Positions 1,353 to 18,191 of a DNA stretch of 32,000 nucleotides are shown one piece after another. The translations under genes were made by a program, and so were the position numbers. The notes beneath the pieces are model-generated. The model did no database searches. It was not told the DNA's origin and saw nothing but the letters and a program-made list of their open reading frames with translations. Position 1 is the first letter of the stretch, and each line of letters starts with the position of its first letter. Source of the stretch: Eubacterium maltosivorans (GTDB lineage Bacteria > Bacillota > Clostridia > Eubacteriales > Eubacteriaceae); NCBI RefSeq assembly GCF_002441855.2, contig NZ_CP029487.1:3366349-3398348 (forward strand), read 5' to 3'.

Positions 1353-2336
1353 ATGTTTACAGATGACCAAATTCATCTTGCAAATGATGTGAATATCATC
1401 GACTATATGGAATACCGCGGTCTTGACCTCAAACGCACCAACCGCCGGGTCAAAGTAAAAGGCTGGAACGGCCTTGATGTCACACCCGACGGGCGCAAAT
1501 GGAAAGACTTTGCATCCGGTCAGGGAGGGTACATTATTCAGTTTGTCGCTTGGCTCAACGCTTACAGCTGGAAAGAAGCCGTTCAGGAGCTGCTGGATTT
1601 CAGCCATCACACCCCACCCGCCCATCGGCCCATCCCGCAGACAGAGCCACCGCCGTCAAAACCTTTTTGTCTGCCGCCCAAAGCCAAAAGTTACCGGAAT
1701 CTCTTTGCCTATCTGTTAAAAACCCGCAAGCTTGATTCAGAAATTGTTCAATACTGTGTCGATCAAAAGCTCATCTATCAGGATGAACGCTGTAATTGCG
1801 TGTTTGTAGGATATGACGATAACGGAGAACCCGCATCCGCTTTTCTGCGCGGGAGCAACGAATACGCTCCTTTTAAAATGCTCGTTGAAGGAAGCCAAGC
1901 CGAATACGGCTTTACTTTACCCGGAACCAATTCGCGGCTTTTTATCTTTGAATCGCCCATCGACTCGCTTTCCTATATGACCCTCAAAAATATCCGTAAT
2001 CCGCTTTACTTTGACAACCGCCGAGATCACTGTCTTTCTTGCAATGGCCTGAAATACCTTCCGATTTTGCACTACCTGTCAACACATCATGAAATCAGTC
2101 AAGTTGTGTTCGGTGTGGACAATGACCCGGTCAATGCATATGGCAACCGTCCCGGTCAGGATTTTATTAAGAGTGCCACGCAGGAAATCATGGAAGCTTT
2201 TCCAGACCGATTCACAACATCAAAACAATTCATCGCAGATTTACCGAGACAAAAAGACTGGAATCAGGAACTTGTCACATTTAGAAAAAGTCAAGAACAC
2301 AAAAAATCAAAAAATGGACGGCAGTCATGCCGCTGA
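1353..2336 (+). CDS. DUF3991/Toprim domain protein (primase-like conjugative element protein)
   Basis: GGAGGAG precedes the ATG. The Toprim acidic motifs are present (LFIFESPIDSLS and VVFGVDNDP). The central region resembles DUF3991 (KLDSEIVQYCVDQKLIYQDERCNCVFVGYDDNG). Confidence 0.75.
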   Translation: MFTDDQIHLANDVNIIDYMEYRGLDLKRTNRRVKVKGWNGLDVTPDGRKWKDFASGQGGYIIQFVAWLNAYSWKEAVQELLDFSHHTPPAHRPIPQTEPPPSKPFCLPPKAKSYRNLFAYLLKTRKLDSEIVQYCVDQKLIYQDERCNCVFVGYDDNGEPASAFLRGSNEYAPFKMLVEGSQAEYGFTLPGTNSRLFIFESPIDSLSYMTLKNIRNPLYFDNRRDHCLSCNGLKYLPILHYLSTHHEISQVVFGVDNDPVNAYGNRPGQDFIKSATQEIMEAFPDRFTTSKQFIADLPRQKDWNQELVTFRKSQEHKKSKNGRQSCR

Positions 2337-2337
2337 G

Positions 2338-2376
2338 AGCAGCTGATCAATTCAAATTGAAAGCTGCTTTTTCTTT
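2338..2376 (+). terminator. Rho-independent terminator after the Toprim gene
   Basis: AGCAGCT (2338-2344) pairs with AGCTGCT (2362-2368) across a 17-nt loop, followed by TTTTTCTTT. Confidence 0.55.
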
Positions 2377-2477
2377 ACCCAAAAACAGAAAACAAACGCC
2401 ATAAGGCGGTTGAGATAGATATTTTTACAAAGGAGGTTTAAACGTGAAAGAACAAAATTGTAAAAGGAGGAATCAGC

Positions 2478-4523
2478 ATGACACACCGATTTAAACAGGC
2501 TTCCGTTTTGCTCATGGCCTTGCTGATGTTGTTTTATGGCTGCGGCTTCAAAGCAGAGGTTTTGGCAAACACAGCGACGGAAAATTCACCGGAGATCACA
2601 GAGCCAACTGCTCAAACCGATCCGGCATTCACCGGAGAAATTGAGGATACCAAGAAAAAAAGTCCCGAGCTTGATCCCGGGGAACAAGCGATTCTGGATG
2701 CAAATGGCATTACCGCCACCGAGGATACCGGAAAGATGGATGCTTCCGGCAACTACATTCTCGGGGAAACCGCAAGCGGTGGGACCGTGACCTGTTCTAC
2801 GAGTCTCAGGACATTGGCGAGCCGAAGCTTTGGGGATGAACCCTGCTACAAAAAATTTCAGCGTGCTGCAGGCTGGGATGATGGCGTGATCTACAGCAGT
2901 GATTTTGCCAGTCCCGACGGAAGCGACATCATTACCACCACCACACCCATTTTGAGAATCAGTGATAACGGCGTAGATCAAATCGCGTATTGTGCCGATC
3001 CATCCCTCAACATTCCCTCAGAAGTGGTCGGCCCCAACGGTCTGGTCACCTATAACCGGGAAAGCTGGAACGTGCAGAGCGGACGTATTCGAAACGTCAT
3101 GTGGCACGGCTATCATGATGGAAACAGCGGGGAATACTATGTTCAGACCTGGGCAGCCATCCGCGTCATTGCAGGCATCGGCGCTTATACCGATTACTAT
3201 ATGACCGATCCAACCGTTGCCAATCTTGTAAACACTCTCAGCTATCAAAATCCCAATAACTGGGATGCCAGCTGGAGCATTGTCCCGGAACGGGAGGAAG
3301 CGGTCTGGAACGCGAGTACCAAGCGGCAGGAAACCGGTTGGTTTCAGACCTACTGTAACAATATTGCCGATCATGGCACTTATACGGTCACGTTGCCAAG
3401 TGGTGTCCATGCGCTGCTGCGAAATACCAGCGGACAGGTTTACAGCGATGTGACCGATCAGTTTACCATCTACGATGACGACGACTTTATGTTGTACGCA
3501 GACGGCAGCTATCAAGGAGAAGTCAGCGCAAATATTACGCCGACAACCATCAAACGCCACAGCTCTGATGCTGGAAATCCAGATGCCTGCGTCATTTACG
3601 CGCCGGACGTCCCGGACACCCAGAGACTTTTCGTCTCCCTTGCCGTCGGTCAGAGTCCGTTAAGCAGCGGCTTCCGGGCAAATTTCACCGGAGCCACCGG
3701 AGACGCGCAATTACAGAAAACAGATAACCGCACCAAAGAAAAACTGGCCGGGGCGACCTTTGGTCTGTACGATATGAAAGATAACCTTTTGAAGCAGGGC
3801 ATCACCGACGAGAACGGGCAGTGGAACGTGACCGACTTAGTTTTTGGAGACTACTATTTCAAAGAAATCGCTGCGCCAAAAGGCTATGAGCTGAATCCGG
3901 CAAAGCTGCCGTTCACGGTTGACGGTATCCGGGATATGGTGACGGTGGTGATGGCAAACGAGCCGAAGAAAGGCCCCTTCCAGTTTATCAAGCAGGATGC
4001 CGAAACCAGAGAACCCCTTAAAGGCGTGACCTTTGTACTGTATGGCTGTGATGAAAAGCATCCGCATAACGACCTGCAGGATGACAAGATTAAATCCTGC
4101 TGGCAGACCATTGTCGGTACCCGGATCAGCGGGACAGACGGAAAAATCGACTTTGGCAATCTCTACGCCGGAGAATACCAGCTGGTGGAAACCAAGACCG
4201 TTCCCGGATACGCCAAGCCCATGGGGCAGTGGCGTGTGACCATTGATCCAGAAGCAGTTGAAACCGTAAAGATCACCGCCAAAGGCACCGCCCCGGCATT
4301 TGTGAAAGACGGCAATGCTCTGAAAGTCGATAACCAGAAAAACGACAAGCTGCCCTTCACAGGCGGAAACGGCGATCACCGTGCCGCACTGATGCTGGCC
4401 GGGATGGTGTTCTTCCTTGCGGCGGGCATTTTAGCTTTAATCCTTAAAAAGAGAAATCTTAAAAATCCAAAAGAAAGCAGCGAAAAGATAGAAAGGAAAG
4501 AAGAAAATGAATCTGAAAAATAA
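2478..4523 (+). CDS. LPXTG-anchored surface adhesin / minor (tip) pilin with CnaB/SpaA-type repeats
   Basis: N-terminal signal peptide. Two C-terminal CnaB/SpaA-like repeats (GATFGLYD...GDYYFKEIAAPKGYEL and GVTFVLYG...GEYQLVETKTVPGYAK). LPFTG sorting motif followed by a hydrophobic segment and a charged tail. AAGGAGG lies 7 nt upstream of the ATG. Confidence 0.85.
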   Translation: MTHRFKQASVLLMALLMLFYGCGFKAEVLANTATENSPEITEPTAQTDPAFTGEIEDTKKKSPELDPGEQAILDANGITATEDTGKMDASGNYILGETASGGTVTCSTSLRTLASRSFGDEPCYKKFQRAAGWDDGVIYSSDFASPDGSDIITTTTPILRISDNGVDQIAYCADPSLNIPSEVVGPNGLVTYNRESWNVQSGRIRNVMWHGYHDGNSGEYYVQTWAAIRVIAGIGAYTDYYMTDPTVANLVNTLSYQNPNNWDASWSIVPEREEAVWNASTKRQETGWFQTYCNNIADHGTYTVTLPSGVHALLRNTSGQVYSDVTDQFTIYDDDDFMLYADGSYQGEVSANITPTTIKRHSSDAGNPDACVIYAPDVPDTQRLFVSLAVGQSPLSSGFRANFTGATGDAQLQKTDNRTKEKLAGATFGLYDMKDNLLKQGITDENGQWNVTDLVFGDYYFKEIAAPKGYELNPAKLPFTVDGIRDMVTVVMANEPKKGPFQFIKQDAETREPLKGVTFVLYGCDEKHPHNDLQDDKIKSCWQTIVGTRISGTDGKIDFGNLYAGEYQLVETKTVPGYAKPMGQWRVTIDPEAVETVKITAKGTAPAFVKDGNALKVDNQKNDKLPFTGGNGDHRAALMLAGMVFFLAAGILALILKKRNLKNPKESSEKIERKEENESEK

Positions 4524-6021
4524 CCCATTGTTCAAGAAAATCGGCGGCCTTGCTTTAAGCATTGCCATTTTATGCACAAGCTGCGGCCCCGCTTTTGCCG
4601 CCACCGGATCACCGGATACCAGTGCAACGCGGAGCCTGACCATCCATAAATACCGGATGGAGGACATTACAAAGGCCACCACCGAAGGAACCGGTCAGCA
4701 GACCGATGTTGTTCCAGCCGATGCGGTTCCGCTTCCGGGCATCGCGTTTAAAGTGACCAAGATGCAGGATACCGACAATACCAAAGTGGATACCACCTGG
4801 AACATCCAGACCGTCACCACCGGAGCCGACGGTTCGGTCACCATCAGCGGCAACAGTAACCTGCCCATGGGGGTCTACAAGGTAGAAGAACAAACCAATC
4901 CAGCGGTAGCCGTCAAAGCCGACCCGTGTCTGGTATCCGTACCCCTCACCAACCCTGCGGGCGACGGCTGGATTTACAACGTCCACGTATTCCCCAAAAA
5001 CCAGATCAAGCACGGCCCGGACATCGACAAGTTTGTGACCGAGCTGGAAAACAAACACGATACCGCGGACATCAGCGAAAGCGTGAAGTGGATTATCGAA
5101 ACCACACTGCCGGATGATGTGGCGACCTGTAAGAACTACACCATAACAGACAGCATCGACACCCGATTAGATTTTGTTCCGGGCAGTGTCAAGGTCTACC
5201 GTGTCGATACCGATAAAAAACGTGTGCTCATGACACCGGACAGCTACACGGTCACAGAACCAAGTACGGCCAACAGCCGAACCTTAACCGTGTCGCTGAC
5301 AGATGCCGGCAAAAAAACAGCGGCCAAGTCACTGCCAAATGCCAAAGATAAAAACGCCACCCTCAACATTGAATTCAAAACCGTCATAAACAAAACCGCC
5401 GAGGGCAGCTTAGGTAAGCCAATCCCCAACGGCGCGACCATCCATTATACCAACAACTTAGACATTTTCTTTGAACCACAAACCGTTCCCGATGACAAAA
5501 AGCCCGAAGTACATACCGGAGGAATCAACCTTTTAAAGGTGGACGCAGACGACAACGCCCTTAAGCTTCAAGAAGCCAAATTTAAAATATACCGAACCGA
5601 AGCCGACGCGAAGAAAAACATCAACGCCGTCAAAGACCCGCAAGACAACCATATCGACTGGGAAGTGACCACCGACGCAAGCGGCATTGCCCATTTCTGG
5701 GGCCTTGCCTATGGACAGAAAGGGCAGGATACTTATTATGGCGACAGCACGCATTACTGGGTGGTTGAGACACTGGCCCCGGTAGATGGCGAAGGGAAAC
5801 CCTACAATCTACTGAAATACCCTGTAAAGGTGACCGTCAATTCAAACAGCCATGCCGAAGCCAACAAGATTATTGTGGAAAACATCAAGCATTACGACCT
5901 CCCCTACACAGGCGGTACCGGCAGTTTAACACCTCTTTATATGGGCGCGGCATTGATTCTCATGGCAGCCGGGATGAGTATTCTTTTCATCCGGAGCAAG
6001 CGAAACACAGGGGACAAATAG
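4507..6021 (+). CDS. Backbone (major) pilin, LPXTG-anchored
   Basis: Signal peptide. Pilin-motif-like WIYNVHVFPKN (compare WxxxVxVYPKN). E-box-like YWVVETLAPVDG. LPYTG followed by a TM segment and a KR tail. Its start overlaps the end of the adhesin gene. Confidence 0.8.
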   Translation: MNLKNNPLFKKIGGLALSIAILCTSCGPAFAATGSPDTSATRSLTIHKYRMEDITKATTEGTGQQTDVVPADAVPLPGIAFKVTKMQDTDNTKVDTTWNIQTVTTGADGSVTISGNSNLPMGVYKVEEQTNPAVAVKADPCLVSVPLTNPAGDGWIYNVHVFPKNQIKHGPDIDKFVTELENKHDTADISESVKWIIETTLPDDVATCKNYTITDSIDTRLDFVPGSVKVYRVDTDKKRVLMTPDSYTVTEPSTANSRTLTVSLTDAGKKTAAKSLPNAKDKNATLNIEFKTVINKTAEGSLGKPIPNGATIHYTNNLDIFFEPQTVPDDKKPEVHTGGINLLKVDADDNALKLQEAKFKIYRTEADAKKNINAVKDPQDNHIDWEVTTDASGIAHFWGLAYGQKGQDTYYGDSTHYWVVETLAPVDGEGKPYNLLKYPVKVTVNSNSHAEANKIIVENIKHYDLPYTGGTGSLTPLYMGAALILMAAGMSILFIRSKRNTGDK

Positions 6022-6040
6022 GCGAAAGGGGAAGCTGGAA

Positions 6041-6856
6041 ATGAAAAACAAAGCAATGCTGCTGCTGATCATTGTTCTGGTCAGTGCGGGGCTTGGCTGC
6101 ATCCTTTATCCGGATATGGTTTATCTTCTGGCTTCCCAAAAACAGGGACAGGTGATTCAGGATTATCAAATGACGACAGAGGAGATGAACAAACAGCGCA
6201 TGGAGGAAGCCTATCAAAAAGCTATTAGCTACAATGAAAGACGGATCAATCCAATCATTGGAGATCCTTTTTCAGAGGATATACAAGAAGAATCAGCGGA
6301 TTACACAGAGATTCTTAATGTTAACGGGACAATGGGAGTGATCGAGATACCAAAAATAAAGGTGAATCTGCCCATCTATCACGGCACATCCGAATCCGTG
6401 CTTTCGAGAGGAGTGGGGCATCTGAAAAACACCGCCCTGCCCGTCGGCGGCACCGGGACACACGCCGTGCTGACCGGACACCGGGGCTATGCAGGCGCAA
6501 AGCTGTTTACCGATTTAGATCAGTTGGTCATGGGGGATCGCTTTTATCTGCACGTCCTTGATAAGACTTTAACCTATGAAGTGGATCAGATTCTGGTGGT
6601 CACACCCGACCAGACCGAAGCCTTAAAACCCGTCGAAGGAGAGGACTTTGTAACCCTGCTGACCTGCACCCCGTACCAGATCAACAGCCACCGGCTGCTG
6701 GTGCGCGGCAAACGAATCAAAGCACTTCCCGCAGAAGTGAAGCCTGAGACGATGGAAGAACCGACACCTGTTAAGGAACTGCTTTTTTCCTTTGTATCTC
6801 TGGTAGGAATTGCAGCAGGTATCTGGTATTTGAAAAGGAGGAAGAAACGTGAATGA
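6041..6856 (+). CDS. srtC: Class C (pilus-polymerising) sortase
   Basis: N-terminal TM segment, DPF lid motif (IGDPFSED), LTGHRG, catalytic TLLTCTP, and a C-terminal TM segment plus KRRKKRE tail typical of class C sortases. Confidence 0.9.
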   Translation: MKNKAMLLLIIVLVSAGLGCILYPDMVYLLASQKQGQVIQDYQMTTEEMNKQRMEEAYQKAISYNERRINPIIGDPFSEDIQEESADYTEILNVNGTMGVIEIPKIKVNLPIYHGTSESVLSRGVGHLKNTALPVGGTGTHAVLTGHRGYAGAKLFTDLDQLVMGDRFYLHVLDKTLTYEVDQILVVTPDQTEALKPVEGEDFVTLLTCTPYQINSHRLLVRGKRIKALPAEVKPETMEEPTPVKELLFSFVSLVGIAAGIWYLKRRKKRE

Positions 6857-7163
6857 ATGGGATTTAGGTGCCATGCTGACACTAACCGGGATGCTGACTT
6901 TCGGTTTGATCCTGTTATGGAGCATCCGAAAGCGAGAGAAAAAATGCCGAAGCTATCCGCCGTGGCTGGCGGTGCAGATTGTGAGTATCTTAATCCTGCT
7001 CGTATGTGTGCCAGTTTATCTGATGTTTAGTAGCGGTTATTCTGTTGCCCGAATATTTTCCACATCGTTGATCCTTGCGACTGCAATCATTGGTTTGGAA
7101 CGGGCTGTTTCCAAGCTACAACGGCATTACTTTCACTGGAAAGACAGAAAGGGAGCGTTTTAA
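6849..7163 (+). CDS. Small integral membrane protein of unknown function (pilus cassette)
   Basis: GTG start overlapping the sortase stop codon. Three predicted hydrophobic helices. Composition matches the cassette. Confidence 0.55.
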   Translation: MNEWDLGAMLTLTGMLTFGLILLWSIRKREKKCRSYPPWLAVQIVSILILLVCVPVYLMFSSGYSVARIFSTSLILATAIIGLERAVSKLQRHYFHWKDRKGAF

Positions 7164-7280
7164 AAGGATAAAACAGATCAATCGTATTATTGAGTTTGTC
7201 GAAATCGAGAACCGTGACAATTTGTCACAGTTTGTTGTATGGTTGGTTAAAAAGCGTTATATCATTAAGGTGAACAAAAA

Positions 7281-7304
7281 AGTCGCCTGAAAAATCAGAC
7301 GGCT
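7281..7304 (+). terminator. Possible terminator at the end of the pilus cassette
   Basis: AGTCGCCTGA, loop AAAA, TCAGACGGCT: a 10-bp stem with one mismatch and one G-U pair. Only a weak T/A-rich tract follows. Confidence 0.35.
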
Positions 7305-7421
7305 TATATATATACAGCAGATAATCGGCAGGGCGGCGTATCCTGCATCTCAGGTACTCCAAAGAGTGTGTTGGGAGCCATTTCCAACCTCAACTACCTG
7401 CTGGTATAATCTATGTACCCT

Positions 7422-7853
7422 TTATTCTTTTATACTTTCATTATAAGGCTTTTCAAAGGAGGCGTCAAGGTCTAGGGATAAAGAGCAGACAGGTTTAAGT
7501 CGACCGCTGTTTAAATGTTTTTTTAGCTTTCCATCACTGATGGCATACAAAGAAGCAATGAACAGATAATCATTTTTCAGATCAAGTTTAATTGCAACCA
7601 TAATGTTAGCATCATAATGTTTTACAATTTCAATGCTGTTGGGCTCTTTTGGATTTTTACCAATATAATCCGGAAACTCAAGCATTTCAGAAATATGGGG
7701 CAAGTAAGCGAGACAATCAGGATGCCTTTTTTCAATATGAACGCGAAGTCCCTTTGACTGGTAAATCGGCCCGCATGGTAAATTGGACTGTGTGACAAGG
7801 TTAAATTCTGGTAGATATTCACCTACTTTTATCATTTTGTTGAAATCAACCAT
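7422..7853 (-). CDS. PBECR-family (phage-Barnase-EndoU-ColicinE5/D-RelE-like) putative nuclease
   Basis: IYQSKGLRVHIEKRHPDCLAYLPHISEMLEFPDYIGKNPKEPNSIEIVKHYDANIMVAIKLD resembles the PBECR3/4 pattern as I remember it (...HI.KRHP...I..PDYIG.NPKEPNSIE.VK...VAIKLD). The preferred start is the ATG at 7853, with GAGG 6 nt upstream. The track instead starts at the GTG at 7865. Confidence 0.55.
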   Translation of the reverse strand: MVDFNKMIKVGEYLPEFNLVTQSNLPCGPIYQSKGLRVHIEKRHPDCLAYLPHISEMLEFPDYIGKNPKEPNSIEIVKHYDANIMVAIKLDLKNDYLFIASLYAISDGKLKKHLNSGRLKPVCSLSLDLDASFEKPYNESIKE

Positions 7854-8073
7854 ATGCCGCCTCACTTGTTTACAAGAATAAGAACATTATACTAAAAATT
7901 GCATAGAAAAGCAAAAGAAGCAAGCGTACGAATTTGGCGTACAATTCAAGGCTGTATGCAGAAGGAGAGAGAGAAAGTAGCCCAAAAATCAGACATGAAC
8001 AGCTCAATTTTTAATAGCATTTACAGACAAAAACGGGAATACACAATCAGTATTCTCTTTTTTATTACGGCCC

Positions 8074-8104
8074 GCCGCTCAAAAACCATTGAGCGGCTTT
8101 TTTT
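8074..8104 (+). terminator. Strong rho-independent terminator immediately upstream of the parA RBS
   Basis: GCCGCTCAA (8074-8082), loop AAACCA, TTGAGCGGC (8089-8097): a perfect 9-bp stem followed by TTTTTTT (8098-8104). The parA SD AGGAGG begins at 8109. Confidence 0.75.
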
Positions 8105-8122
8105 ATTTAGGAGGTGCCAATT

Positions 8123-8950
8123 ATGGCAAAAACCAAAGTCATCACAATTTCTAATCAAAAAGGTGGTGTCGGCAAGACCAATGTCACGGTGAACCTCGGT
8201 GTGGGTCTGGCAAATGAAGGAAAGAAAGTGCTTCTGGTGGACAGTGATCCACAAGGCGATTTAACCACTTCCCTCGGATGGTATGATCACTATGGACTTG
8301 AAGCGACGTTGACTACCATGATGCAGGGCATTGTCGCTGACCAGCCCATTGACCCCAAGGCGGTGATCCTGCACCACCCGGAAAACGTCGATTTAATCCC
8401 CGCGGATTTAGATCTCGCAGGCATGGAGATGTCACTACTGGTGGCTATGAACCGGGAATCCGTACTGCGCATGTGTCTACAGGACATCAAGAAAGACTAT
8501 GACTATATCCTTATCGACACCATGCCAAGCCTGGGTATCCTGTCGATTAACGCCATGGCTGCGGCGGACAGCATCATCATTCCCGTACAGGCCCAGTATC
8601 TGGCCCTTAATGGGATGACCCAGCTGATCCAATCCATCAACAAGGTTAAGCGGCAGATCAACCCCAATTTAAAAGTTGAAGGTGCACTCATTACCATGGC
8701 CGATATAAACACCAACATGACCAAAGAGGTGGCCGAAGCACTCCATGAGCAGTACGGAAAACAGCTTTATATTTTTCGCAATGCCATTCCACGCGCTACA
8801 AAGGCAGCAGAAACCAGTGCGGCGGCCAAAAGCATTTACACCTACGACAAGGGAACAAAAATCTGTGAAGCCTACAAAGCTTTGACGAAGGAGGTAATTA
8901 ACCATGGCAGTAAACAAAAAGATAAACATGCCGCTGCCCAGTGCCGATGA
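8123..8950 (+). CDS. parA: ParA/Soj-family partition ATPase
   Basis: Deviant Walker A motif KGGVGKT in [26 protein letters not shown] at 8109-8114 lies 8 nt upstream of the ATG at 8123. The track start at 8114 is a GTG inside the SD. Confidence 0.9.
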
Positions 8951-9842
8951 CCTGTTTAAAACCGATGCGGAAAGACAGAATGATGGACTTGAAAAAGTTA
9001 TGGAAATTCCCATTGAGGAAATTTCAAGCTTTCCAGACCATCCCTTTAAGCTCCAGATGGATGAAGCCATGCAGGACATGGTCGAAAGCATCAAAGAATA
9101 CGGCGTACTGTCACCCGCTTTGGTAAGACCAAAAGAAGGCGGGGGATACGAGATGGTATCCGGCCACCGTCGAAAAATGGCTTCTGAGATTGCAGAAAAG
9201 ACGGCGATCCCCTGTATTGTCCGAAACCTGACGGATGATGAAGCCATTATTCTGATGGTGGATTCCAATCTGCAACGGGAAAAAATCATGCCTTCAGAAA
9301 AAGCTTTTGCTTACAAAATGAAACTCGATGCCATGAAAAGACAGGCAGGAAGGCCGAGCAAAAATAATCCTGTGCCAGTGGCACAGGATTTAAAGGGAAA
9401 GACTTCCCGCGAAGTTTTAGGCGAACAGGTGGGGGAGAGTCAGGATCAAATACGGCGTTATATCCGTTTAACCGAACTGGATTCCCCCATTTTGGACATG
9501 GTGGATGAGGGGAGAATCGCATTCCGGCCCGCGGTGGAGCTGTCCTACCTGAAGCCTGCCGAGCAAAAACAGCTTTTAGAGGTGATGGAAAGCGAGGAGT
9601 GTACCCCTTCATTGGCACAGTCCACGAAGCTGAAACAGTTCTCCAAGGAAGGGAAACTCACGAACAACGTCATTTTATCCATCATGAAAGAGGTCAAGCC
9701 CAACCAGAAGGAAACCATCAAAATTCAGAAAGAGAAAATCAGCAAGTATTTCAGGAAAGGAACCACCGACAAAAAAATTGAAGATACCATCATCAAGGCG
9801 TTGGAGATGTATCAGAAACGCCAGAAGCAGATGGAGCGGTAA
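8904..9842 (+). CDS. parB: ParB/Spo0J-family N-terminal domain protein
   Basis: ParB box with arginine patch ([13 protein letters not shown]) and an HTH region. AAGGAGG lies 8 nt upstream of the ATG. The gene overlaps parA by 47 nt. Confidence 0.85.
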
Positions 9843-9851
9843 CAGGATTCA

Positions 9852-9871: not shown

Positions 9872-9896
9872 ATTTACGTTCAAAGGAGGAACGAAG

Positions 9897-10478
9897 ATGT
9901 TAGAAACAGATTGGATGTACGAAGATTATCAGATCACACAGGCCATTGATATTCAAGGGCGTATGGTTATTTTTGGAGAAAGTCGCTTAGATAATAAGCC
10001 AACAGCGTTCTTGTGCGGCTATTATGAACCTTTGTTATTGGCGGATGCTTATTCGGAAATCCAAATCGGCAGTTATCTGGAAATGATGGAACTGTTCATA
10101 AAGCGGGTACAGTGTCAAATTGATAAAGTGCGGGAGGAACAACAGGAAATGGATGTGCCGTTAGATGCTATTACCCGGGAAATGTGTGTTCCTTATCAGG
10201 AGAATACAGGCATCCGTGGTCAGATGGTTGCCATTGATCCCATGCGGTTTCGGCCAGAAGATCGCATTGGCCCGAAACAAATCGGCTATGTGATAGCGGA
10301 TCAAACACCTTCCAAAAACAGTATGGTGTTCAGACGGCTTTATGATGGCCGGGAGATGTGCTGTTTTTACGGGGACATTCTGGGTGTGATCAAGTCTGAG
10401 TATCAGTCGGATTGGGCCAAAGAAGTGGTCTGTCAACTTGAAAAAAATGATGAAAACCGAAAAGGAGAAACACGCTGA
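9897..10478 (+). CDS. Hypothetical conjugative-element protein (193 aa)
   Basis: AAGGAGG lies upstream. Codon composition matches the neighbours. Its stop overlaps the next start (TGATG). Confidence 0.7.
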   Translation: MLETDWMYEDYQITQAIDIQGRMVIFGESRLDNKPTAFLCGYYEPLLLADAYSEIQIGSYLEMMELFIKRVQCQIDKVREEQQEMDVPLDAITREMCVPYQENTGIRGQMVAIDPMRFRPEDRIGPKQIGYVIADQTPSKNSMVFRRLYDGREMCCFYGDILGVIKSEYQSDWAKEVVCQLEKNDENRKGETR

Positions 10479-11024: not shown

Positions 11025-11035
11025 GGAGCAGTGCC

Positions 11036-11831: not shown

Positions 11832-11835
11832 GGTG

Positions 11836-12237
11836 ATGGTATTGCTCAATGCACGCATTACATACGGTGGCAAGCAGCTTTTAACCAAGCTCTGGTACCC
11901 ACACGATACCATCAAATGGGCTTTATACGATATGGGCATCAGAAAGTCCATGGATGAAATTTATCCGGATGATCCGGAAATCAGTATCCAGTACCTGCCC
12001 GACAGTCCAGAAGGACAGCAGCTTTCATCCTTGATTACCTGCCGCCATTCCCTCATGGAAGTCAACACCGCCTGCCGGGCTTACTACTGTACCGGGGACT
12101 ACCGCGTTATGGATCGCATGGATGCGCGGCTTGAAAAGGGCTCTATTAAAACATTGGAGGACTATATTAAAACCGCGCAGCGGATCAAGAGAAAGCTGGA
12201 TAAAGACCCGATCCGGCGGAAAACCGATGCGCGGTAA
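11836..12237 (+). CDS. Hypothetical protein (about 133 aa)
   Basis: The track ORF 11725..12237 overlaps the previous gene by about 100 nt. The in-frame ATG at 11836 (MVLLNARITYGG...) follows that gene's stop. The exact start is uncertain (GTG at 11833 and TTG at 11842 are also possible). Confidence 0.55.
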   Translation: MVLLNARITYGGKQLLTKLWYPHDTIKWALYDMGIRKSMDEIYPDDPEISIQYLPDSPEGQQLSSLITCRHSLMEVNTACRAYYCTGDYRVMDRMDARLEKGSIKTLEDYIKTAQRIKRKLDKDPIRRKTDAR

Positions 12238-12260
12238 AAGAAAAAAGGAGGAAAACCAAC

Positions 12261-13268
12261 ATGTACGAGGGTGTGATTAATGCCTATGTGACGAACTTAG
12301 GCCGCTACAACGAGGGTTATCTGGTGGGAGAGTTCTTAGCTTTACCCGCCACCACTGAGGAAGTACAGGCTATTTTTGAGCGGATCGGCGTAGACGAAAA
12401 GCGATATGAGGAATACTTTATCACCGATTATGAAACAGAGATCAGCGGTCTGGGCGATTGTCTGGGTGAATATGAAAATCTGAATGCCTTGAATTATCTT
12501 GCGTCCTGCCTTGATGAGCTGACCGAGGAAGAAATGAAAAAATATGAAATCGCTGTGGAAGAAGGCGACTACACGTCAAGCATCGTGGATTTAATCAACT
12601 TGACCCAAAATCTGGATTGCTACGACATCGTTCAGGACATCGACAACGACTATGCGCTGGGGGAATACTATATCAACGAGTGCGGTGCATTTTTGGAAGT
12701 ACCGGATGGGCTGAGTAACTATATCGCCTATGACGCATATGGACGGGACGCGCGGATGAATGATTGCGGCAGCTACATCAACGGCTGTTATGTGTGCGAA
12801 ACTGGAGCAGGCTTTTATCCTTTCTTCGATGGTCATGAGATTCCCGAAGAATACCACATCACGTCTTTTCCAGAGCCAAGAGATGTGGATGCCCTGATGG
12901 TACGCATCGGACAGCCTCCTGAAAAAATCCGCATTGAAAATAGTCTGGAAGGCATCGAGAGTGTCTTTGAAGGGACCGTTTGCGCCTATCCCCTGTCGGA
13001 TGAAACCCTCATTGTTACTCAAAAAGAGGATAAACGGATTCCCAACCACGCCCTTTTTGACGCAGCGGAACATGCCAAGATCAGCGTTTGTGGGGATTTT
13101 CTATTGTGCAACTGGGATTTTGAAGCCCTTAAAGTCAAAGACCTCACCCCAAAACAGATTGAAAAATATATGGATCAACTGGAACATCCTGAAAAATACA
13201 ATGGGGATGTGCAGCGAAAGATCGTATTTCCGGAAAAAGAAAAGCATCGGGACACGATGGAACGGTAA
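12261..13268 (+). CDS. ardA: Antirestriction protein ArdA fused to a C-terminal DUF3846-like domain
   Basis: The N-terminus INAYVTNLGRYNEGYLVGEFLALPATTEEVQAIFERIGV is the ArdA signature (compare Tn916 Orf18). The protein is acidic. Residues from about 205 to 335 align with the two downstream DUF3846 proteins. AAGGAGG lies upstream. Confidence 0.85.
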   Translation: MYEGVINAYVTNLGRYNEGYLVGEFLALPATTEEVQAIFERIGVDEKRYEEYFITDYETEISGLGDCLGEYENLNALNYLASCLDELTEEEMKKYEIAVEEGDYTSSIVDLINLTQNLDCYDIVQDIDNDYALGEYYINECGAFLEVPDGLSNYIAYDAYGRDARMNDCGSYINGCYVCETGAGFYPFFDGHEIPEEYHITSFPEPRDVDALMVRIGQPPEKIRIENSLEGIESVFEGTVCAYPLSDETLIVTQKEDKRIPNHALFDAAEHAKISVCGDFLLCNWDFEALKVKDLTPKQIEKYMDQLEHPEKYNGDVQRKIVFPEKEKHRDTMER

Positions 13269-13300
13269 GCAGAATGTCACCTGAAGATTCTGCTTTTTTT
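13269..13300 (+). terminator. Rho-independent terminator after ardA
   Basis: GCAGAAT (13269-13275) pairs with ATTCTGC (13287-13293), followed by TTTTTTT (13294-13300). Confidence 0.65.
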
Positions 13301-13390
13301 ATTTCAGAAGGGAGGTGATTCCCTTGAACTATAATCCATAGAGCTCACGGTCACAAAAGAAATTTTTAAAAAAACGAAGGAGAAAAACAC

Positions 13391-13561
13391 ATGAGTACAG
13401 CCATTAACCTGAATGAATTGATGAAACTTTATGAGGGGGAGGACGTGGAGATCACGTTGATCATCCCCTCGTCACCCCTCATTGTGGATGTGGGAGAGAC
13501 ATCAGAAGCCAGCGAAGGGAAAGGAAACGATCATGAAAAACAATACCACGAATCAAAATGA
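13391..13561 (+). CDS. Small acidic hypothetical protein (56 aa)
   Basis: Below the track cut-off. Translation: MSTAINLNELMKLYEGEDVEITLIIPSSPLIVDVGETSEASEGKGNDHEKQYHESK. AAGGAG lies 8 nt upstream of the ATG. It overlaps the next gene by 29 nt. Confidence 0.4.
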   Translation: MSTAINLNELMKLYEGEDVEITLIIPSSPLIVDVGETSEASEGKGNDHEKQYHESK

Positions 13562-13979
13562 ACTAACGGATAAGAAAGACGAAATCACCATCCTGATGAT
13601 CCGGGCCGGGGAGCGGCCACAGGAAATGACCATTGAGAACACCCTTGAAGCCAAGCAGAAATTGGTGGATGGATACATTGAAATGTATTATCTTCCAACC
13701 GATGACGACGCAGTGATCATCTGTAATGAAGAAGGAAAGATCAACGGTCTGCCCCTGAACCGCGGTATTTTTGATGAAAAAAAGCGGCTTGTTGAGATTA
13801 TTGCAGGCGATTTTTTTCTTTGTAACGCCCCGAGGGACAGCGAGGATTTTACAAGCTTAAGCCCAAAACAAATTGAAAAATTTTCTGAGCAATTCAAATA
13901 TCCTGAACAGTTTATACGCCTTAATCAAGGGATTATCGCTGTCCCGATAAAGGATAAACACAGGGATTATGAGCGGTAA
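13533..13979 (+). CDS. DUF3846 domain protein (paralog 1)
   Basis: Contains DDDAVIICNEEGKINGLPLNRG...IAGDFFLCN...LSPKQIEKF. The preferred start is the ATG at 13533 (MKNNTTNQ). The track starts upstream at 13482. Confidence 0.7.
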   Translation: MKNNTTNQNELTDKKDEITILMIRAGERPQEMTIENTLEAKQKLVDGYIEMYYLPTDDDAVIICNEEGKINGLPLNRGIFDEKKRLVEIIAGDFFLCNAPRDSEDFTSLSPKQIEKFSEQFKYPEQFIRLNQGIIAVPIKDKHRDYER

Positions 13980-13985
13980 CTGAAA

Positions 13986-14393
13986 ATGAAACGTACAATC
14001 AATGTCTTATATATCCGATCCGGGGAGTCCCCGCGGGAAGTTACCATTCCCAATAACCTGAAATCCATGCAAAAACTCGTAGGCGGCAACATTGAAAGGT
14101 ATGAGTTACAAACGGATGATGATGCAGTGATTATCTGCAACGATGAAGGAAAGATAAACGGTCTGCCGATGAACCGTGGCATCTTTATTGATAACAGTGA
14201 ACTTATTGACATCATTGCCGGGGACTTTCTTATCTGCAATGCGCGGGGTGACCGAAAAGGTTTTTCCAGTCTTACCCCCGAACAAATCCAAAAATATGCC
14301 GAAGAATACAAGTTTCCTGAGCGGTTTTGCCGTGTAAACCGAGAGATTGTTGTCGTGCCGTTGATGCCGAAAATCAAATATTATGAGCGGTAA
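13986..14393 (+). CDS. DUF3846 domain protein (paralog 2)
   Basis: Contains DDDAVIICNDEGKINGLPMNRG...IAGDFLICN...LTPEQIQKY. It is clearly paralogous to 13533..13979 at both the protein and the DNA level. Confidence 0.75.
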   Translation: MKRTINVLYIRSGESPREVTIPNNLKSMQKLVGGNIERYELQTDDDAVIICNDEGKINGLPMNRGIFIDNSELIDIIAGDFLICNARGDRKGFSSLTPEQIQKYAEEYKFPERFCRVNREIVVVPLMPKIKYYER

Positions 14394-14531
14394 CTAAATT
14401 GAAAGCAGGGGAGCCTTGCGGCGTGAGACTGTCCCAGCAAGCACTGAAAAAGGATAGCCGCCCTCCAGGCAGCTCACCTTTTTCGCTTGTTGGGGCGTGC
14501 CCCAATCCCCCTTTTATAACGTGGATAAGGA
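14394..14531 (+). promoter_or_regulatory. Putative oriT / relaxosome assembly region
   Basis: A 138-bp intergenic region directly upstream of mobC and the relaxase gene. It contains the palindrome TTGGGGC-GT-GCCCCAA (14490-14505), followed by CCCCCTTTTATAAC. Confidence 0.45.
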
Positions 14532-14540
14532 GTGAAAAAT

Positions 14541-14867
14541 ATGCGAAAGCGCAACGTTGAGATCCTGTTTCGCCTGACAAGGCGGGAAGCACAGGAACTG
14601 GATAAAAAAGTGAAGAAGTCTGGTCTGAGCCGGGAAGCTTTTCTGCGTGCCATGATTGAAGGCTACCAGTTACACGAAAAACCCGGCCCGGCGTTTTACG
14701 AAACCATGCGGCAGATGTCCGCCATCGGAAACAACCTGAACCAGATTGCCGCCAAGGCCAATGCCCTGGGTTTTGTGGATCAGCCGCTTTATGAAAAAGA
14801 AGCCCTGAAATGGCGGAAGTTCCAGACCGAAATCAGAGAAAAATTTCTGCTGCCAGAAAAAGGATGA
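14541..14867 (+). CDS. mobC: MobC-family relaxosome accessory protein
   Basis: RLTRREAQELDKKVKKSGLSREAFLR together with IGNNLNQIAAKAN is the MobC signature. AAGGAG at 14527-14532 lies 8 nt upstream of the ATG at 14541. The track GTG at 14532 lies within the SD. Confidence 0.8.
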   Translation: MRKRNVEILFRLTRREAQELDKKVKKSGLSREAFLRAMIEGYQLHEKPGPAFYETMRQMSAIGNNLNQIAAKANALGFVDQPLYEKEALKWRKFQTEIREKFLLPEKG

Positions 14868-14868
14868 T

Positions 14869-16227
14869 ATGGCCACCACAAAAATTTGGGACATCCGGGG
14901 CCGTCTGGACAGGGTGGTTGATTATGCCAAAAATCCGGATAAGACAAAGAACAAAAATTATGGCGTGGCTGACGTACAGGCCCTGCGGGATGTGATGGAC
15001 TATGTGTCGCAGGACATTAAAACTGAAAGGCAGTTTTATGTCACAGGTTTAAACTGTTCACCCGAAACCGCGAGGGAGGAGATGACCATCACCCAAAAGC
15101 AGTACCGCAAGGAGGGCGGCATCATTGCCTATCACGCCTATCAAAGCTTCAAACCCGGGGAAGTCACCCCGGAGATCGCCCATGAAATCGGCGTAAAACT
15201 GGCAGAGGAATTGTGGGGATCACGGTTTGAGGTGATCGTCGCAACCCACATCGACAAAGCCCATATTCACAATCACATGGTGCTGAACGCTGTCTCCTTT
15301 GCTGATGGGCTGCGCTACTATGACAATAAAGAAACCTATCGGAAAATGCGGGAGGTCTCCGACCGTCTTTGCCTTGAATACAAGCTTTCCGTGATTCAAA
15401 AGACCATGAACAAGTCTATGCAGTACGGTGAGTGGCGGGCAGAGCAGGAAGGAAAACCCACATGGCGGGGCCTGATCTTAAAAGACCTCGATGCAACCAT
15501 TTCCGAATCCGTGACCCTTCGGCAGTTTCTGTATCGTCTGCGGCAGAAGGGATACGCCATCAAGTATGATGCAAAATACTTCACGCTGAAGCCGCCCGGG
15601 AAAGCGCGATATGTGCGCATTGACCGCCAGTATCCCGAATACCGTTTAGACAACATCGAACAGCGGATTTTTAAACAGCAGCAGATCAAGCAGTACCGAC
15701 CCGGGCCAAAGGCTGCAAAGAAAAAAATGCTTTTGCACGGAAGCTTTGAAAAAGCCCGTCATACCAGCGGCCTGCGGGGCCTGTACCTTTACTACTGCTT
15801 TAAGCTGGGCGTGTTTCAAAAGAAAAAAGACCGGGAAGCAGGCGCACTGCCGTTTCTGTACCGGGAGGATATACGGAAGATGGAACAAATCAGTCAGGAA
15901 GCGTGTTTTCTATGCCGCCATCAGATCAACACCATGGATGAACTGGCAGCTCATAAGATAGAAAATGAACAGCAGATAAAAAAACTCTGTACTGAGCGTA
16001 AAAAACTCTGGAACAGAACACAGCGCACACCGGATGAAAAAGAGGTGACTAAAATCAAAGCGGACATTGCCGGGCTGAGCGCGCAGATCAAAGCACTCAG
16101 AAAGGAAGTGAAGTATTGTGACGGCATTGCCGCGCGATCCATGCCGATGAAAGAAAAAATCAAAGCAGTCAAATTAGAAGAAAAAAATAAAGGAAAGGAG
16201 CATACCAAAAATGAATACAAGCGGTGA
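14869..16227 (+). CDS. MobA/VirD2-family conjugative relaxase
   Basis: N-terminal relaxase fold with the histidine triad HIDKAHIHNH. The N-terminus is MATTKIWDIRGRLDRVVDYAKNPDKT. The C-terminal part is coiled-coil. The start is tightly coupled to the mobC stop. Confidence 0.85.
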   Translation: MATTKIWDIRGRLDRVVDYAKNPDKTKNKNYGVADVQALRDVMDYVSQDIKTERQFYVTGLNCSPETAREEMTITQKQYRKEGGIIAYHAYQSFKPGEVTPEIAHEIGVKLAEELWGSRFEVIVATHIDKAHIHNHMVLNAVSFADGLRYYDNKETYRKMREVSDRLCLEYKLSVIQKTMNKSMQYGEWRAEQEGKPTWRGLILKDLDATISESVTLRQFLYRLRQKGYAIKYDAKYFTLKPPGKARYVRIDRQYPEYRLDNIEQRIFKQQQIKQYRPGPKAAKKKMLLHGSFEKARHTSGLRGLYLYYCFKLGVFQKKKDREAGALPFLYREDIRKMEQISQEACFLCRHQINTMDELAAHKIENEQQIKKLCTERKKLWNRTQRTPDEKEVTKIKADIAGLSAQIKALRKEVKYCDGIAARSMPMKEKIKAVKLEEKNKGKEHTKNEYKR

Positions 16228-17104
16228 CGCAGCTGAACAAGTCATCCGACTATCCCTTGAAGGGGCGGATTTTTTGTTGCGGCTGACAGGGACAGGCCTT
16301 AAAAATCTGGCCTTTCTGTTAATCTCAGCTTTAAAGAGTGCTGATGTACACAAAACAAAAGGAAAAACCCGATTAACAGCTATGCTGAAATCCGGGAAAC
16401 CCTTAACCGTTTTTTCGATTAACAATGCTGACCTTGAAGTCTTTGCCAAAGAAGCCAAGCATTACGGGGTGCTTTACTGTGCCCTGGGCAATCCGACAGG
16501 CAGTCCGGATGGTGTGACGGATATTCTGGTGAAGCAGGAGGATGCTGTGCGGATCAACCGGATCGTTGAACGCTTCCAGCTGGCAGCAGTGAATACCGCG
16601 GAAATTAAGAGTGAAATTCTGAATGAACGGGAAGGGCAGACGCAGACTCCTGAAGAAGTACAGGCAGAGGAAGCCCTGTTGAATGATCTTTTTGGTGCAT
16701 CGGATCAGGAATCCAAAGCCGGGGAAGAACAGCTGCTGGATGTCCTTTTAGGCCCCGCAGAGCCAAAGGAGGAAAACGAGCTGCCCCCAAAGGAGGAAAA
16801 CATGGTTTCGGGCAGGGAGGACAAGGAAGTCCTACAGGCGGAGAAACCCTACGCCGAGGACCCGCAGGCCCAGGCACAGGAGAAAAGCCTTCCATCCGGG
16901 AACAGCTTGAAGCCGCCCGCCGCAGAAGAAGGTAAACCTTCCGTCCGGGCAGAACTCAGAGCGATCAAAGCCGAGCAGGAAAAGGCCCGGGCAGAACCCG
17001 AACGCAGCGCACCGGAGCCGCAAAAGGAAACCAAACACCATGGGCCCAAGCGGAAAACCAAAAAAGAGATTCAAAAAAAATCGAAGGGAGATAAAACACG
17101 ATGA
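16211..17104 (+). CDS. PcfB-family (DUF3801) protein with a disordered E/P/K/A-rich C-terminal half
   Basis: NTSGDAAEQVIRLSLEGADFLLRLTGTGLKNLAFLL...KTKGKTRLTAMLKSGKPLTVFSI...AKHYGVLYC matches the PcfB family as I remember it. Confidence 0.7.
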   Translation: MNTSGDAAEQVIRLSLEGADFLLRLTGTGLKNLAFLLISALKSADVHKTKGKTRLTAMLKSGKPLTVFSINNADLEVFAKEAKHYGVLYCALGNPTGSPDGVTDILVKQEDAVRINRIVERFQLAAVNTAEIKSEILNEREGQTQTPEEVQAEEALLNDLFGASDQESKAGEEQLLDVLLGPAEPKEENELPPKEENMVSGREDKEVLQAEKPYAEDPQAQAQEKSLPSGNSLKPPAAEEGKPSVRAELRAIKAEQEKARAEPERSAPEPQKETKHHGPKRKTKKEIQKKSKGDKTR

Positions 17105-17988
17105 GTAACTTATATGACCTGTTTGGTCAGGAAGAACCCGAACAGAAGCCGAGAAACAATCAAAAGTGGCAGGCCGAGCAAAAGGCCAACCGGGAATACT
17201 GCTATACACAAATTGAAAAGGCCCTTGAAACCATTGGGAAAAGTCCCGAGCTATTTCAGGGGTATCTGAACGTTCAGGCCAATTTTGAATACTATACTGC
17301 CCGTAACGCGCTGCTCATACAGGTGCAGCGGGAAACCGCCACCAAAATTGCAGACAGTACGACATGGAAAGAGCAGGGTATCTTTGTGAAACAGTCCGAG
17401 TTCAGAAACCCGATTTTGATTCTGGAACCCGGAAACCCCTACACCCGTGATGATGGAACAACCGGGCAGTCCTTCAAGGCCAAGAAAATGTACGACATCA
17501 CCCAGACCACCTGTCGGGTGCGTTCTCAGAAAACAGGCAAACTGGATGACCGGATGCTGATAAAATCACTCATTTCAAAGGCCCCGGTAAAGATTCTGAC
17601 CGCCGAAGCCGTCAATCATCCGCTGGCCGTGGATTTTGATATGGATAAAGAGTGCGTGGTGGTGGAAAAAGGGCTGAATCCGGATGCCATGTATCAGGGA
17701 ATCGCCGCCGCTTTAGCCAAGTCCGAACTGGCCTTAAACGGATGCGATACCAAAACCCTTGATTTCAAGGCCCAGGCCGCCGCTTACATGATCTGCAGAC
17801 AGGCAGGCGTTTCAACCGCATGCTTTGACTTTTCAAAGCTGCCGGATTTTCTGACCAGTGCAGAACCGCAGCAGGTGGGCGCAGAGCTGACCGCCATCAA
17901 GGATGCCATGGCCGAGGTGTCCATGCGGGTAAAGTACAATTTACAGCAGATGGTACAGCAAAAGAGCCGGGCAGACCCGGCACGCTGA
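17101..17988 (+). CDS. ArdC-N-like (ssDNA-binding, antirestriction-type) domain protein, putative
   Basis: YYTARNALLIQVQRETATKIADSTTWKEQGIFVKQSEFRNPILIL resembles the ArdC N-terminal pattern (YS..N..L...Q........T..QW...G..V.KGEK). The start overlaps the pcfB stop (ATGA). Confidence 0.45.
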   Translation: MSNLYDLFGQEEPEQKPRNNQKWQAEQKANREYCYTQIEKALETIGKSPELFQGYLNVQANFEYYTARNALLIQVQRETATKIADSTTWKEQGIFVKQSEFRNPILILEPGNPYTRDDGTTGQSFKAKKMYDITQTTCRVRSQKTGKLDDRMLIKSLISKAPVKILTAEAVNHPLAVDFDMDKECVVVEKGLNPDAMYQGIAAALAKSELALNGCDTKTLDFKAQAAAYMICRQAGVSTACFDFSKLPDFLTSAEPQQVGAELTAIKDAMAEVSMRVKYNLQQMVQQKSRADPAR

Positions 17989-17996
17989 GGTAGATC

Positions 17997-18191
17997 ATGA
18001 AAGAAGTCAAAAGAATTTTAACCCTTGACCATGTGGAGTACGGCGTTCTGATCAATGCCCTCAATCAAATGCGAAACGGCCTGATAAGGCAGAAACGGTC
18101 AACAGATGTCGTGGACGACCTCTTACTGAAAACCATCGACGCACCTACAGAAAAGACCGGGAAAAGGAAGGGACGCGACAGTGCAAGATAA
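17997..18191 (+). CDS. Small hypothetical protein (64 aa) preceding the coupling protein
   Basis: Compact ORF whose end overlaps the virD4 GTG start. Basic C-terminal tail. Confidence 0.55.
   Translation: MKEVKRILTLDHVEYGVLINALNQMRNGLIRQKRSTDVVDDLLLKTIDAPTEKTGKRKGRDSAR

Follow-up and report, generated by a model that had tools for sequence, protein, structure and literature searches.

In the type IV secretion systems (T4SSs) that have been studied, the coupling protein is the substrate receptor (PMC7434980, PMC12624023), and positively charged C-terminal signals constitute one known class of T4SS signal (PMC11288057). The signals of Gram-negative conjugative systems are heterogeneous, that is, C-terminal or internal, positive or hydrophobic, and conform to no consensus (PMC11288057). 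As for the proteins that travel, the F-plasmid T4SS transfers ParA, ParB, SSB, and PsiB (PMC8406263), and for Tn1549-like elements it has been proposed that polyvalent proteins bearing ArdC-N, Toprim, and PBECR domains are delivered (PMC5512222). In this study, a 32,000-nucleotide stretch of the Eubacterium maltosivorans genome (assembly GCF_002441855.2, contig NZ_CP029487.1, positions 3,366,349 to 3,398,348; the whole of it is referred to as the window) was analyzed, of which approximately the first 26.5 kb hold most of a Gram-positive integrative conjugative element (ICE). About half of the soluble proteins of this element and of its relatives carry a C-terminal tag of about 12 residues that is closed by Arg and is termed the R tag below. 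A consensus this sharp, 12 residues long and invariant at its last position, offers a directly testable handle on how conjugative T4SSs select their protein substrates.

Twelve proteins of the window, all encoded on the plus strand and identified where possible by Pfam and NCBIfam searches, bear the R tag. The series begins with a DUF3991/Toprim primase-like protein (1353..2336, tail ..HKKSKNGRQSCR), and continues with a ParA ATPase (8114..8950), a ParB protein with ParB_N and HTH_ParB domains (8904..9842), a protein of 193 residues (9897..10478, ..NDENRKGETR), and one of about 133 residues (11836..12237, ..DPIRRKTDAR), whose start is uncertain (ATG 11836 or TTG 11842) and whose C-terminus is the same either way. 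These are followed by an ArdA antirestriction domain fused to DUF3846 (12261..13268, ..EKEKHRDTMER) and two further DUF3846 proteins (13533..13979, with its start at ATG 13533, ..IKDKHRDYER; and 13986..14393, ..MPKIKYYER). A MobA/VirD2-type relaxase (14869..16227, ..KEHTKNEYKR), a PcfB/DUF3801 protein (16211..17104, ..QKKSKGDKTR), an ArdC-like protein of 295 residues (17101..17988, ..QQKSRADPAR), and a 64-residue protein (17997..18191, ..GKRKGRDSAR) complete the set. No Pfam, NCBIfam, or PDB sequence match was found for the proteins at 9897-10478, 11836-12237, 17101-17988, and 17997-18191.

A preceding reading of the bare letters, henceforth the sequence-only reading, had listed the same twelve C-termini, and translation of the window reproduces all of them, together with the reported last codons (CGC, CGA, CGG, or AGA, followed by TGA or TAA) in each case; the labels Toprim, ParA, ParB, ArdA-DUF3846, DUF3846 (two proteins), relaxase, and PcfB are borne out by Pfam. 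Its statement that no pilin, sortase, membrane, channel, or PBECR3 protein and none of three host-side proteins ends in Arg likewise agrees with the translations. It had passed over several soluble element proteins without a terminal Arg, namely YodL (ending in Lys), NikA/MobC (ending in Gly), the largely soluble VirB4 and VirD4, and small open reading frames at 10478, 10737, 11036, and 13391. In total, 12 of the 22 soluble plus-strand proteins of the window are Arg-terminal. The background, for which membrane proteins, opposite-strand proteins, pCF10, and Tn1549 were used, is 6-10%, and the binomial p is accordingly between 8e-10 and 2.5e-7. The three members of the set that contain DUF3846 are paralogues whose tails are related, so that approximately ten of the tails can be regarded as independent.

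The machine parts of the element are untagged. The VirD4-type coupling protein (18181..20025, plus strand) matches T4SS-DNA_transf, TraG-D_C, and the NCBIfam model conju_CD1115 (522 bits vs. a cut-off of 250); it is 39% identical to the VirD4 of Tn1549 and 31% identical to PcfC of pCF10. The mating-channel module that follows on the same strand (19991..26321) comprises a TrbC/VirB2-like pilin-like protein, a 279-residue VirB6-like membrane protein whose counterpart in the E. callanderi relative is annotated as Pfam TrbL_2, PrgI, VirB4, and a lysozyme-CHAP cell-wall hydrolase, all of them untagged. The relaxosome accessory protein NikA/MobC (14532..14867, plus strand), being soluble yet untagged, serves as an internal control.

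To see how widely these tails recur, 80 loci were fetched from species-representative genomes through alignment of the relaxase, out of at least 573 matching stretches in such genomes; their relaxases are 41-91% identical, and their hosts include Clostridia, Peptococcaceae, Christensenellales, Paenibacillus, Cohnella, and Effusibacillus. Genes in these loci were called by a purpose-written codon-score gene caller. Among proteins encoded on the strand of the relaxase, 544 of the 1038 without a hydrophobic segment (52%) end in Arg vs. 12 of the 330 with a transmembrane segment (3.6%; Fisher p 2e-68), and soluble proteins of the opposite strand do so in 13 of 124 cases (10%). The tabulation that the sequence-only reading had proposed, i.e., of C-termini in homologous elements, with soluble accessory proteins set against T4SS structural proteins and background, is thus overwhelmingly positive.

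The effect is concentrated in particular families. Clustering gives a bimodal distribution, with 25 families in which at least 80% of the members end in Arg, 30 in which at most 20% do, and only 6 between. On the tagged side are Toprim (61/68), the ArdC-like protein (61/66), the 64-residue protein (48/54), a large SNF2 helicase (49/51; an N6-methylase fusion in the E. callanderi locus), ParA (4/4), ParB (5/5), ArdA-DUF3846 (6/6), the DUF3846 protein at 13986..14393 (11/11), and other DUF3846 fusions, as well as DpnD/PcfM, DUF3848, DUF6075, DUF6674, DUF5688, RadC, and an HTH-HipA-like protein; PcfB ends in Arg in 48 of 66 cases and in Lys in a further 15, and the relaxase in 50 of 77. On the untagged side are VirD4 (1/70, its CD1115-type family being present in 70 of the 81 sequences formed by the window and the loci), MobC (2/61), the TrbC/VirB2-like pilin (0/58), the 279-residue VirB6-like protein (0/56), PrgI (1/51), VirB4 (3/47), and the lysozyme-CHAP hydrolase (0/5), in addition to DUF6664, the Phd antitoxin, Dcm, AbiEi, and group II intron reverse transcriptases. 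The same tails are found in the element of E. callanderi, which is the closest distinct element, and in relatives with only 32-39% relaxase identity. An artefact of the gene caller can be ruled out, as the annotated genes of two relatives (L081, from E. callanderi, and L086) show the same tails and standard database gene calls give 112 Arg-terminal proteins among 123 for the ArdC-like family.

The latter figure comes from HMMER, run exhaustively against 1.84 billion cluster representatives; a word-index homologue search had returned only two close matches to the protein at 17101-17988. The family comprises at least 1622 clusters at 50% identity, and among the full-length representatives within the best 150, which are mutually less than 50% identical, 112 of 123 (91%) end in Arg, the last two residues being ER in 46 and AR in 43. 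An alignment of 61 sequences has only three columns without variation, namely L56, N69, and R295, the last of which is the terminal Arg. The label "ArdC-like", as first assigned from the letters, is sustained by a BLASTP match to the ArdC-like part of PcfD of pCF10 (E 3e-9) and by an AlphaFold model (predicted local distance difference test score, pLDDT, of 92.4), for which the top PDB match in Foldseek is ArdC of R388 (6I89, E 2.7e-5). Because Pfam, NCBIfam, and PDB sequence searches are blind to this protein despite its ArdC fold and at least 1622 clusters, a large ArdC-like clade appears to be unannotated.

When the tails of 74 unrelated Arg-ending families are combined with equal weight, a defined profile emerges: Arg, bearing the free carboxylate, at -1; Glu (48%), Ala (14%), Val (11%), or Thr (6%) at -2, with Lys/Arg at just 3%; Asp/Glu at -4 (37%); a basic patch of Lys/Arg at -5 to -8 (32-47% per position); Pro at -10 (16%); and background composition beyond -13. 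The earlier description of a K/R-rich tail therefore stands with respect to the basic patch, while it under-describes the motif by missing the acidic residue at -4 and the mostly Glu or Ala residue at -2. The last 12 residues are hydrophilic (hydrophobic fraction 0.18 vs. 0.33 upstream) and carry a net charge of +1.7, vs. -0.35 upstream and 0 in untagged proteins. Within tagged families, pairwise identity at -1 is 0.79-1.0 and at neighboring tail positions mostly 0.1-0.4, with a few family-specific exceptions, such as Lys at -3 in PcfB; in the control families MobC, VirD4, and VirB4, it is about 0.1 at every tail position. The terminal Arg is under strong purifying selection across the element family. 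Moreover, Pfam domains stop 14-30 residues or more short of the C-terminus in the window proteins, and in the ArdC-like model the last ten residues have a pLDDT of 67 vs. more than 90 for the body, the final four forming coil past the last helix; on these grounds, the tag is an appended module, which is predicted to be flexible.

Several variants within the tagged families were noted. The relaxase is the least consistently tagged family, and among its 120 best database homologues only 16 are Arg-terminal; this renders relaxase homologues a misleading test set, since the other proteins of the same untagged-relaxase elements do end in Arg. Relaxases of the Peptococcaceae/Dehalobacter type (L002-L013, P0017-P0120) mostly end ..RSGSNRQYES or ..RQYEP, and some end four residues sooner with ..RSGSNR; those of the E. 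callanderi type end ..KPIEH or ..KPIEY. The Lys-terminal PcfB proteins belong to a Paenibacillus/Cohnella/Effusibacillus clade (L023, L025-L027, L030, L031, L033, L034, L041, L042, L054, L060, L065, L067) and mostly read ..KRGKAK or ..KRGKSK, with ..KKGRSK in L030; in these loci, most other tagged families keep Arg. Near-miss tails that run one or two residues past the usual ending (..HERELL, ..RERE, ..IERL, ..IERD, ..SERM, ..NERV, ..DEARE) occur in Toprim proteins (L002, L003, L008, L013, L023, L037) and in the 64-residue family (L028, L032, L035, L036, L039), and may reflect a recent shift of the stop codon, a variant that is tolerated, or a copy that has been inactivated. ParE-type toxins are also Arg-terminal (..WLVR, ..WLIR; L031 9015-9347, L025 8743-9051, L088 20361-20675), and their adjacent Phd antitoxins are not; the terminal Arg of ParE is probably a trait of that family rather than the tag, because its tails are without the basic and acidic pattern.

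The R tag is not a general property of Gram-positive conjugative elements, as only 3 of 69 proteins of pCF10 with its Tn916-like insert and 2 of 25 of Tn1549 on pMG2200 are Arg-terminal. On pCF10, neither PcfB, PcfM, the ArdC-like PcfD, nor the relaxase or ArdA ends in Arg, and the stand-alone ArdA of the Tn916-like element is without such a tail. Five soluble Tn1549 proteins end ..KNELEV, ..KGLEVE, ..RGLEL, ..THLEL, and ..WTQEL instead, and a Vescimonas relative has ArdA ending ..KGEIEL, a MutS-like protein ending ..KDMEL, and a DUF3849 protein ending ..HDMEL. Tn1549-like elements thus carry a sister tag, K-x-K-x-x-[DE]-[LM]-E-[VL]-COOH, with Lys at -7, Lys/Arg at -9, Asp/Glu at -4, Leu/Met at -3, and Glu at -2. 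Its frequency was determined on the loci reaching 5 kb or more, 69 out of 80 Tn1549-like metagenome loci (L090-L169) plus L085 (Tn1549 on pMG2200, 20001-40097) and L087 (22676-27774); in these, 108 of 805 soluble vs. 5 of 207 membrane proteins end in E-[VLI], and R-family loci show such endings in 8 of 1162. Among the carriers of the sister tag are PcfB, ArdA, YodL-large, MutS-like, DUF3849, and Cys-rich VLP proteins, as well as a fraction of the relaxases; relaxases of the Tn1549-like family end either ..QER or ..QEL.

The two tags resemble each other in having basic residues at about -7/-9, Asp or Glu at -4, and Glu at -2, in being placed on soluble accessory proteins (PcfB, ArdA, YodL-large, relaxase), and in being absent from membrane proteins; the coupling proteins of both are of the CD1115 type. 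They differ in the last residue, which is Val, Leu, or Ile instead of Arg, in the Leu or Met at -3, and in breadth, the sister tag being borne by 13% and the R tag by 48% of the soluble proteins per element. The window element is judged to be a sister of the Tn1549 family and not a member of it: the relaxases are 35% identical over residues 1-267 only and the VirD4 proteins 39%, the gene order is different, Topo III, which with CD1107 and Maff2 belongs to the Tn1549 accessory set, is lacking, and the C-terminal tag is another one. The PcfB, ArdA, DpnD/PcfM, and ArdC-like families have tails that differ by element family. Elements of either tag type are present in Oscillospiraceae and other Clostridia, and the hosts of R-tag elements range from Clostridia to Paenibacillus; which tag is carried depends on the element family and not on the host. 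As two tag types share host groups yet follow the element family, a host-encoded reader (e.g., a protease or the ribosome) is unlikely, and a reader encoded by the element itself is implied. On pCF10, which is experimentally tractable, a basic patch and then K-L close both PcfB (27856-28341, ..TKGRKL) and the relaxase PcfG (33288-34973, ..DIKPKL); this may be a third family-specific tail, although two proteins amount to anecdote.

The signal of the Agrobacterium VirB/D4 system, with which the sequence-only reading had compared these tails, was reportedly defined by Vergunst and colleagues in 2005 as R-x7-R-x-R-x-R-x-x(n), without a requirement for a terminal Arg and without conserved acidic positions. 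The R tag resembles this signal (VirE2, VirE3, VirF, VirD2, VirD5) in lying at the extreme C-terminus, in being short, hydrophilic, unstructured, and net positive with an important Arg, in having a VirD4-type coupling protein encoded alongside, and in being borne by otherwise unrelated proteins. It departs from it in the fixed terminal Arg, the acidic or small residues at -2 and -4, the exclusion of Lys/Arg at -2, the Gram-positive host, and the nature of its carriers, which are maintenance and anti-defence proteins rather than eukaryote-directed effectors; in addition, it is known here from sequence alone. The R-tag profile does not fit the consensus, having no alternating R-x-R and having acidic positions near the end, so that the likeness holds for position, charge, Arg, and VirD4 association and remains a loose one. 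The conjugative substrates of the F/pED208 "conjutome", pKM101, and RP4 are of the same protein kinds (ParA, ParB, single-stranded DNA-handling, and anti-stress or anti-defence proteins), travel together with the DNA, and in some cases have C-terminal signals (PMC8406263, PMC11288057); unlike the signals of these Gram-negative systems, the R tag follows a single sharp consensus across dozens of families. The Legionella Dot/Icm E-block and the Xanthomonas XVIPCD are also C-terminal and read by a coupling protein or complex (PMC8740702), but the former is acidic at -10 to -17, with small or hydrophobic residues closer to the terminus, the latter is a folded domain of about 120 residues, and neither has a fixed terminal Arg. 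It had been remarked at the outset that no defined equivalent was known for Gram-positive conjugation, and none turned up in the literature on C-terminal signals, DUF3846, and PcfB; neither the R tag nor the sister tag was found described in the searchable literature, which does not span all journals.

The reading preferred here, to which a probability of roughly 55% is assigned, is that the CD1115-type VirD4 coupling protein of the element reads the R tag as a signal for recruitment and translocation. VirD4 would recognize the tag on the cytoplasmic side of the type IV secretion channel, and tagged proteins would be recruited there and then passed into the recipient along with the transferred DNA strand. 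In the recipient, Toprim would prime complementary-strand synthesis; ArdA, ArdC-like, SNF2/methylase, RadC, and DUF3846 proteins would blunt restriction; and ParA/ParB and the relaxase would handle the incoming DNA. The tag is present on primase-like, ParA/ParB, ArdA, ArdC-like, RadC, SNF2-helicase/methylase, DUF3846, PcfB, and relaxase proteins and absent from VirD4, VirB4, pilin, PrgI, VirB6-like protein, cell-wall hydrolase, MobC, and cargo genes, which is the distribution expected of substrates as opposed to machine parts. The proposal of a T4SS substrate signal made from the letters therefore fits in its distribution and its family specificity, and it is from these that we infer VirD4 as the probable reader and translocation as the probable outcome.

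Four observations weigh against this reading. The relaxase, the sole protein certain to be transferred, is also the least consistently tagged (16/120 and 50/77, as above). It would be unusual for a T4SS signal to reach so far, namely to approximately half of the soluble proteins of an element, among them ParA, a ParE-type toxin, and a HipA-like protein. For R388, it is the recipient rather than the donor that has to express ArdC (PMC7213743), which indicates that anti-restriction proteins need not travel as proteins. Finally, occasional homologues have one or two extra residues past ..ER or ..AR, so that either a strictly terminal Arg is not absolutely required or these copies are defective. 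A wider form of the proposal is more tentative and is held at somewhat less than even odds, namely that Gram-positive elements with a CD1115-type VirD4 may use short, family-specific C-terminal "zip codes" that co-evolve with the cognate VirD4 and decide which proteins accompany the DNA into the recipient, these amounting to as much as half of the soluble proteome and including primase, partition, and anti-defence proteins.

Among other accounts, the one that survives best is a docking tag acting in the donor only, by which the tagged proteins would assemble at the transfer site without export, on a hub that the element encodes and that could be the coupling protein, the relaxosome, or PcfB. 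The family specificity of the tag, its conservation at the protein level, and its absence from membrane and machine parts suit this account as well as they suit translocation; PcfB adjoins VirD4 in all three element families (R-tag, Tn1549-like, and pCF10) and is itself tagged in two of them, and the frequently untagged relaxase is compatible with a tag that is dispensable for transfer itself. Many of the tagged proteins (ArdA, ArdC-like, RadC, primase), however, act in the recipient, and we know of no precedent for a donor-only scaffold that would gather more than 70 unrelated families. Donor-only docking is accordingly regarded as unlikely, with perhaps one chance in a handful of being correct.

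If the tail were a stability signal, acting as a C-terminal degron or as a protective cap, it could be read by a conserved host protease or adaptor, such as ClpXP/ClpCP or the phospho-arginine mark of McsB, and would govern how long element proteins last; exposed flexible tails are typical protease handles, here confined to soluble proteins. Bacterial degrons (e.g., ssrA ending ..LAA, or the MuA-type basic C-motif of ClpX substrates) are likewise short exposed C-terminal peptides recognized via the free terminus, but their sequences differ from that of the tag, and ..LAA bears no resemblance to it. Furthermore, degrons should not switch with the element family, because it is host proteases that read them, whereas the type of tag follows the element family and not the host, and host-side and cargo proteins are untagged. 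These points render a stability signal distinctly improbable.

An effect at the level of translation is less probable still. An Arg codon before the stop could act through pausing, termination, tagging by transfer-messenger RNA, or coupling, or the tail could embed the ribosome-binding site of the next gene; rare Arg codons before a stop reportedly stall E. coli ribosomes (Hayes and colleagues, 2002), the terminal CGA and AGA codons are mildly over-used relative to internal Arg codons, and many of the genes overlap or abut. However, all six Arg codons are used at the terminal position (CGA 27%, CGG 22%, AGA 16%, CGC 16%, AGG 12%, CGT 7%), as are all three stops, and the Arg-terminal share of soluble proteins is 46-65% in every class of next-gene distance, from overlapping and abutting to more than 200 nt away, in comparison with 0-7% for membrane proteins of the same operon with equal spacing. 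The preferences at -2, -4, and -5 to -8 also persist where the downstream gap exceeds 60 nt. The diversity of codons and stops and the independence from distance remove rare-codon stalling, termination context, ATGA-type coupling, and embedded Shine-Dalgarno sites alike, and the earlier statement that conservation lies at the amino-acid level, and not in a nucleotide coupling motif, is upheld. Chance, shared ancestry, or composition, by which the basic tails of DNA-binding proteins would merely happen to end in Arg, can draw on the three DUF3846 paralogues and on the several tagged proteins that bind DNA, but is almost certainly wrong in view of the binomial (p at most 2.5e-7) and Fisher values, the 74 unrelated families, the near-absence of Lys at the last position of tails in which it is frequent, the depletion of Lys/Arg at -2, and the tagging of ArdA, an acidic DNA mimic.

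Regarding the element as a whole, one co-oriented cluster holds the relaxase and MobC, VirD4, VirB4, PrgI, the VirB6/TrbL-like protein, and the cell-wall hydrolase, as is characteristic of an ICE of the MPF_FA type, and the same order of transfer genes is present in L081 and L086. The guanine-plus-cytosine (GC) content of the element is 0.43-0.56 vs. 35% in the host, and the drop at approximately 26.5 kb marks its putative right end; the left end probably lies beyond the window. Within the 32 kb, no recombinase, tRNA gene, or flanking or att-like direct repeat was found, and an excisionase-like helix-turn-helix (HTH) protein is encoded (Pfam/NCBIfam). Between the Toprim gene and parA lies a complete sortase-dependent pilus module (2478..7163, plus strand; translation and Pfam), composed of two SpaA/Cna-B-type pilins with LPXTG-type architecture, a sortase, and a small membrane protein, all untagged; the module presumably serves as an adhesin in mating, and L086 contains a class B sortase as well as a SpaA-type pilin comparable to these. 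A solo PBECR3 (phage-Barnase-EndoU-ColicinE5/D-RelE-like) nuclease on the minus strand (7422-7865) is untagged and ends ..NESIKE. An open reading frame at 7899-8192 (97 residues, TTG start) overlaps the start of parA and is also Arg-terminal (..ARPMSR); it was passed over by the codon-score gene caller and is probably spurious. In some relatives, group II intron reverse transcriptases interrupt the transfer region (L059 16766-18598; L081 17855-19786), the insertion site in L081 lying between the VirB6-like gene and prgI.

The tag is broad, extending over at least 573 loci in species-representative genomes and more than 1,600 ArdC-like protein clusters, and if the translocation reading is wrong, so strong and widespread a tag would still need another reader, itself new. 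If it is right, the proteins injected into a new host, i.e., the "conjutome" of thousands of uncultured elements, would become predictable from sequence alone, and DUF3846, DUF3848, DUF5688, DUF6075, DUF6674, DpnD/PcfM, and YodL would stand out as establishment or anti-defence factors that act in the recipient. The tag would also be portable, allowing engineered proteins to be delivered into gut and soil bacteria that are hard to transform, such as gut Firmicutes. For the biology of these hosts, it would mean that incoming DNA in Firmicutes is protected by the delivery of proteins, beyond early transcription.

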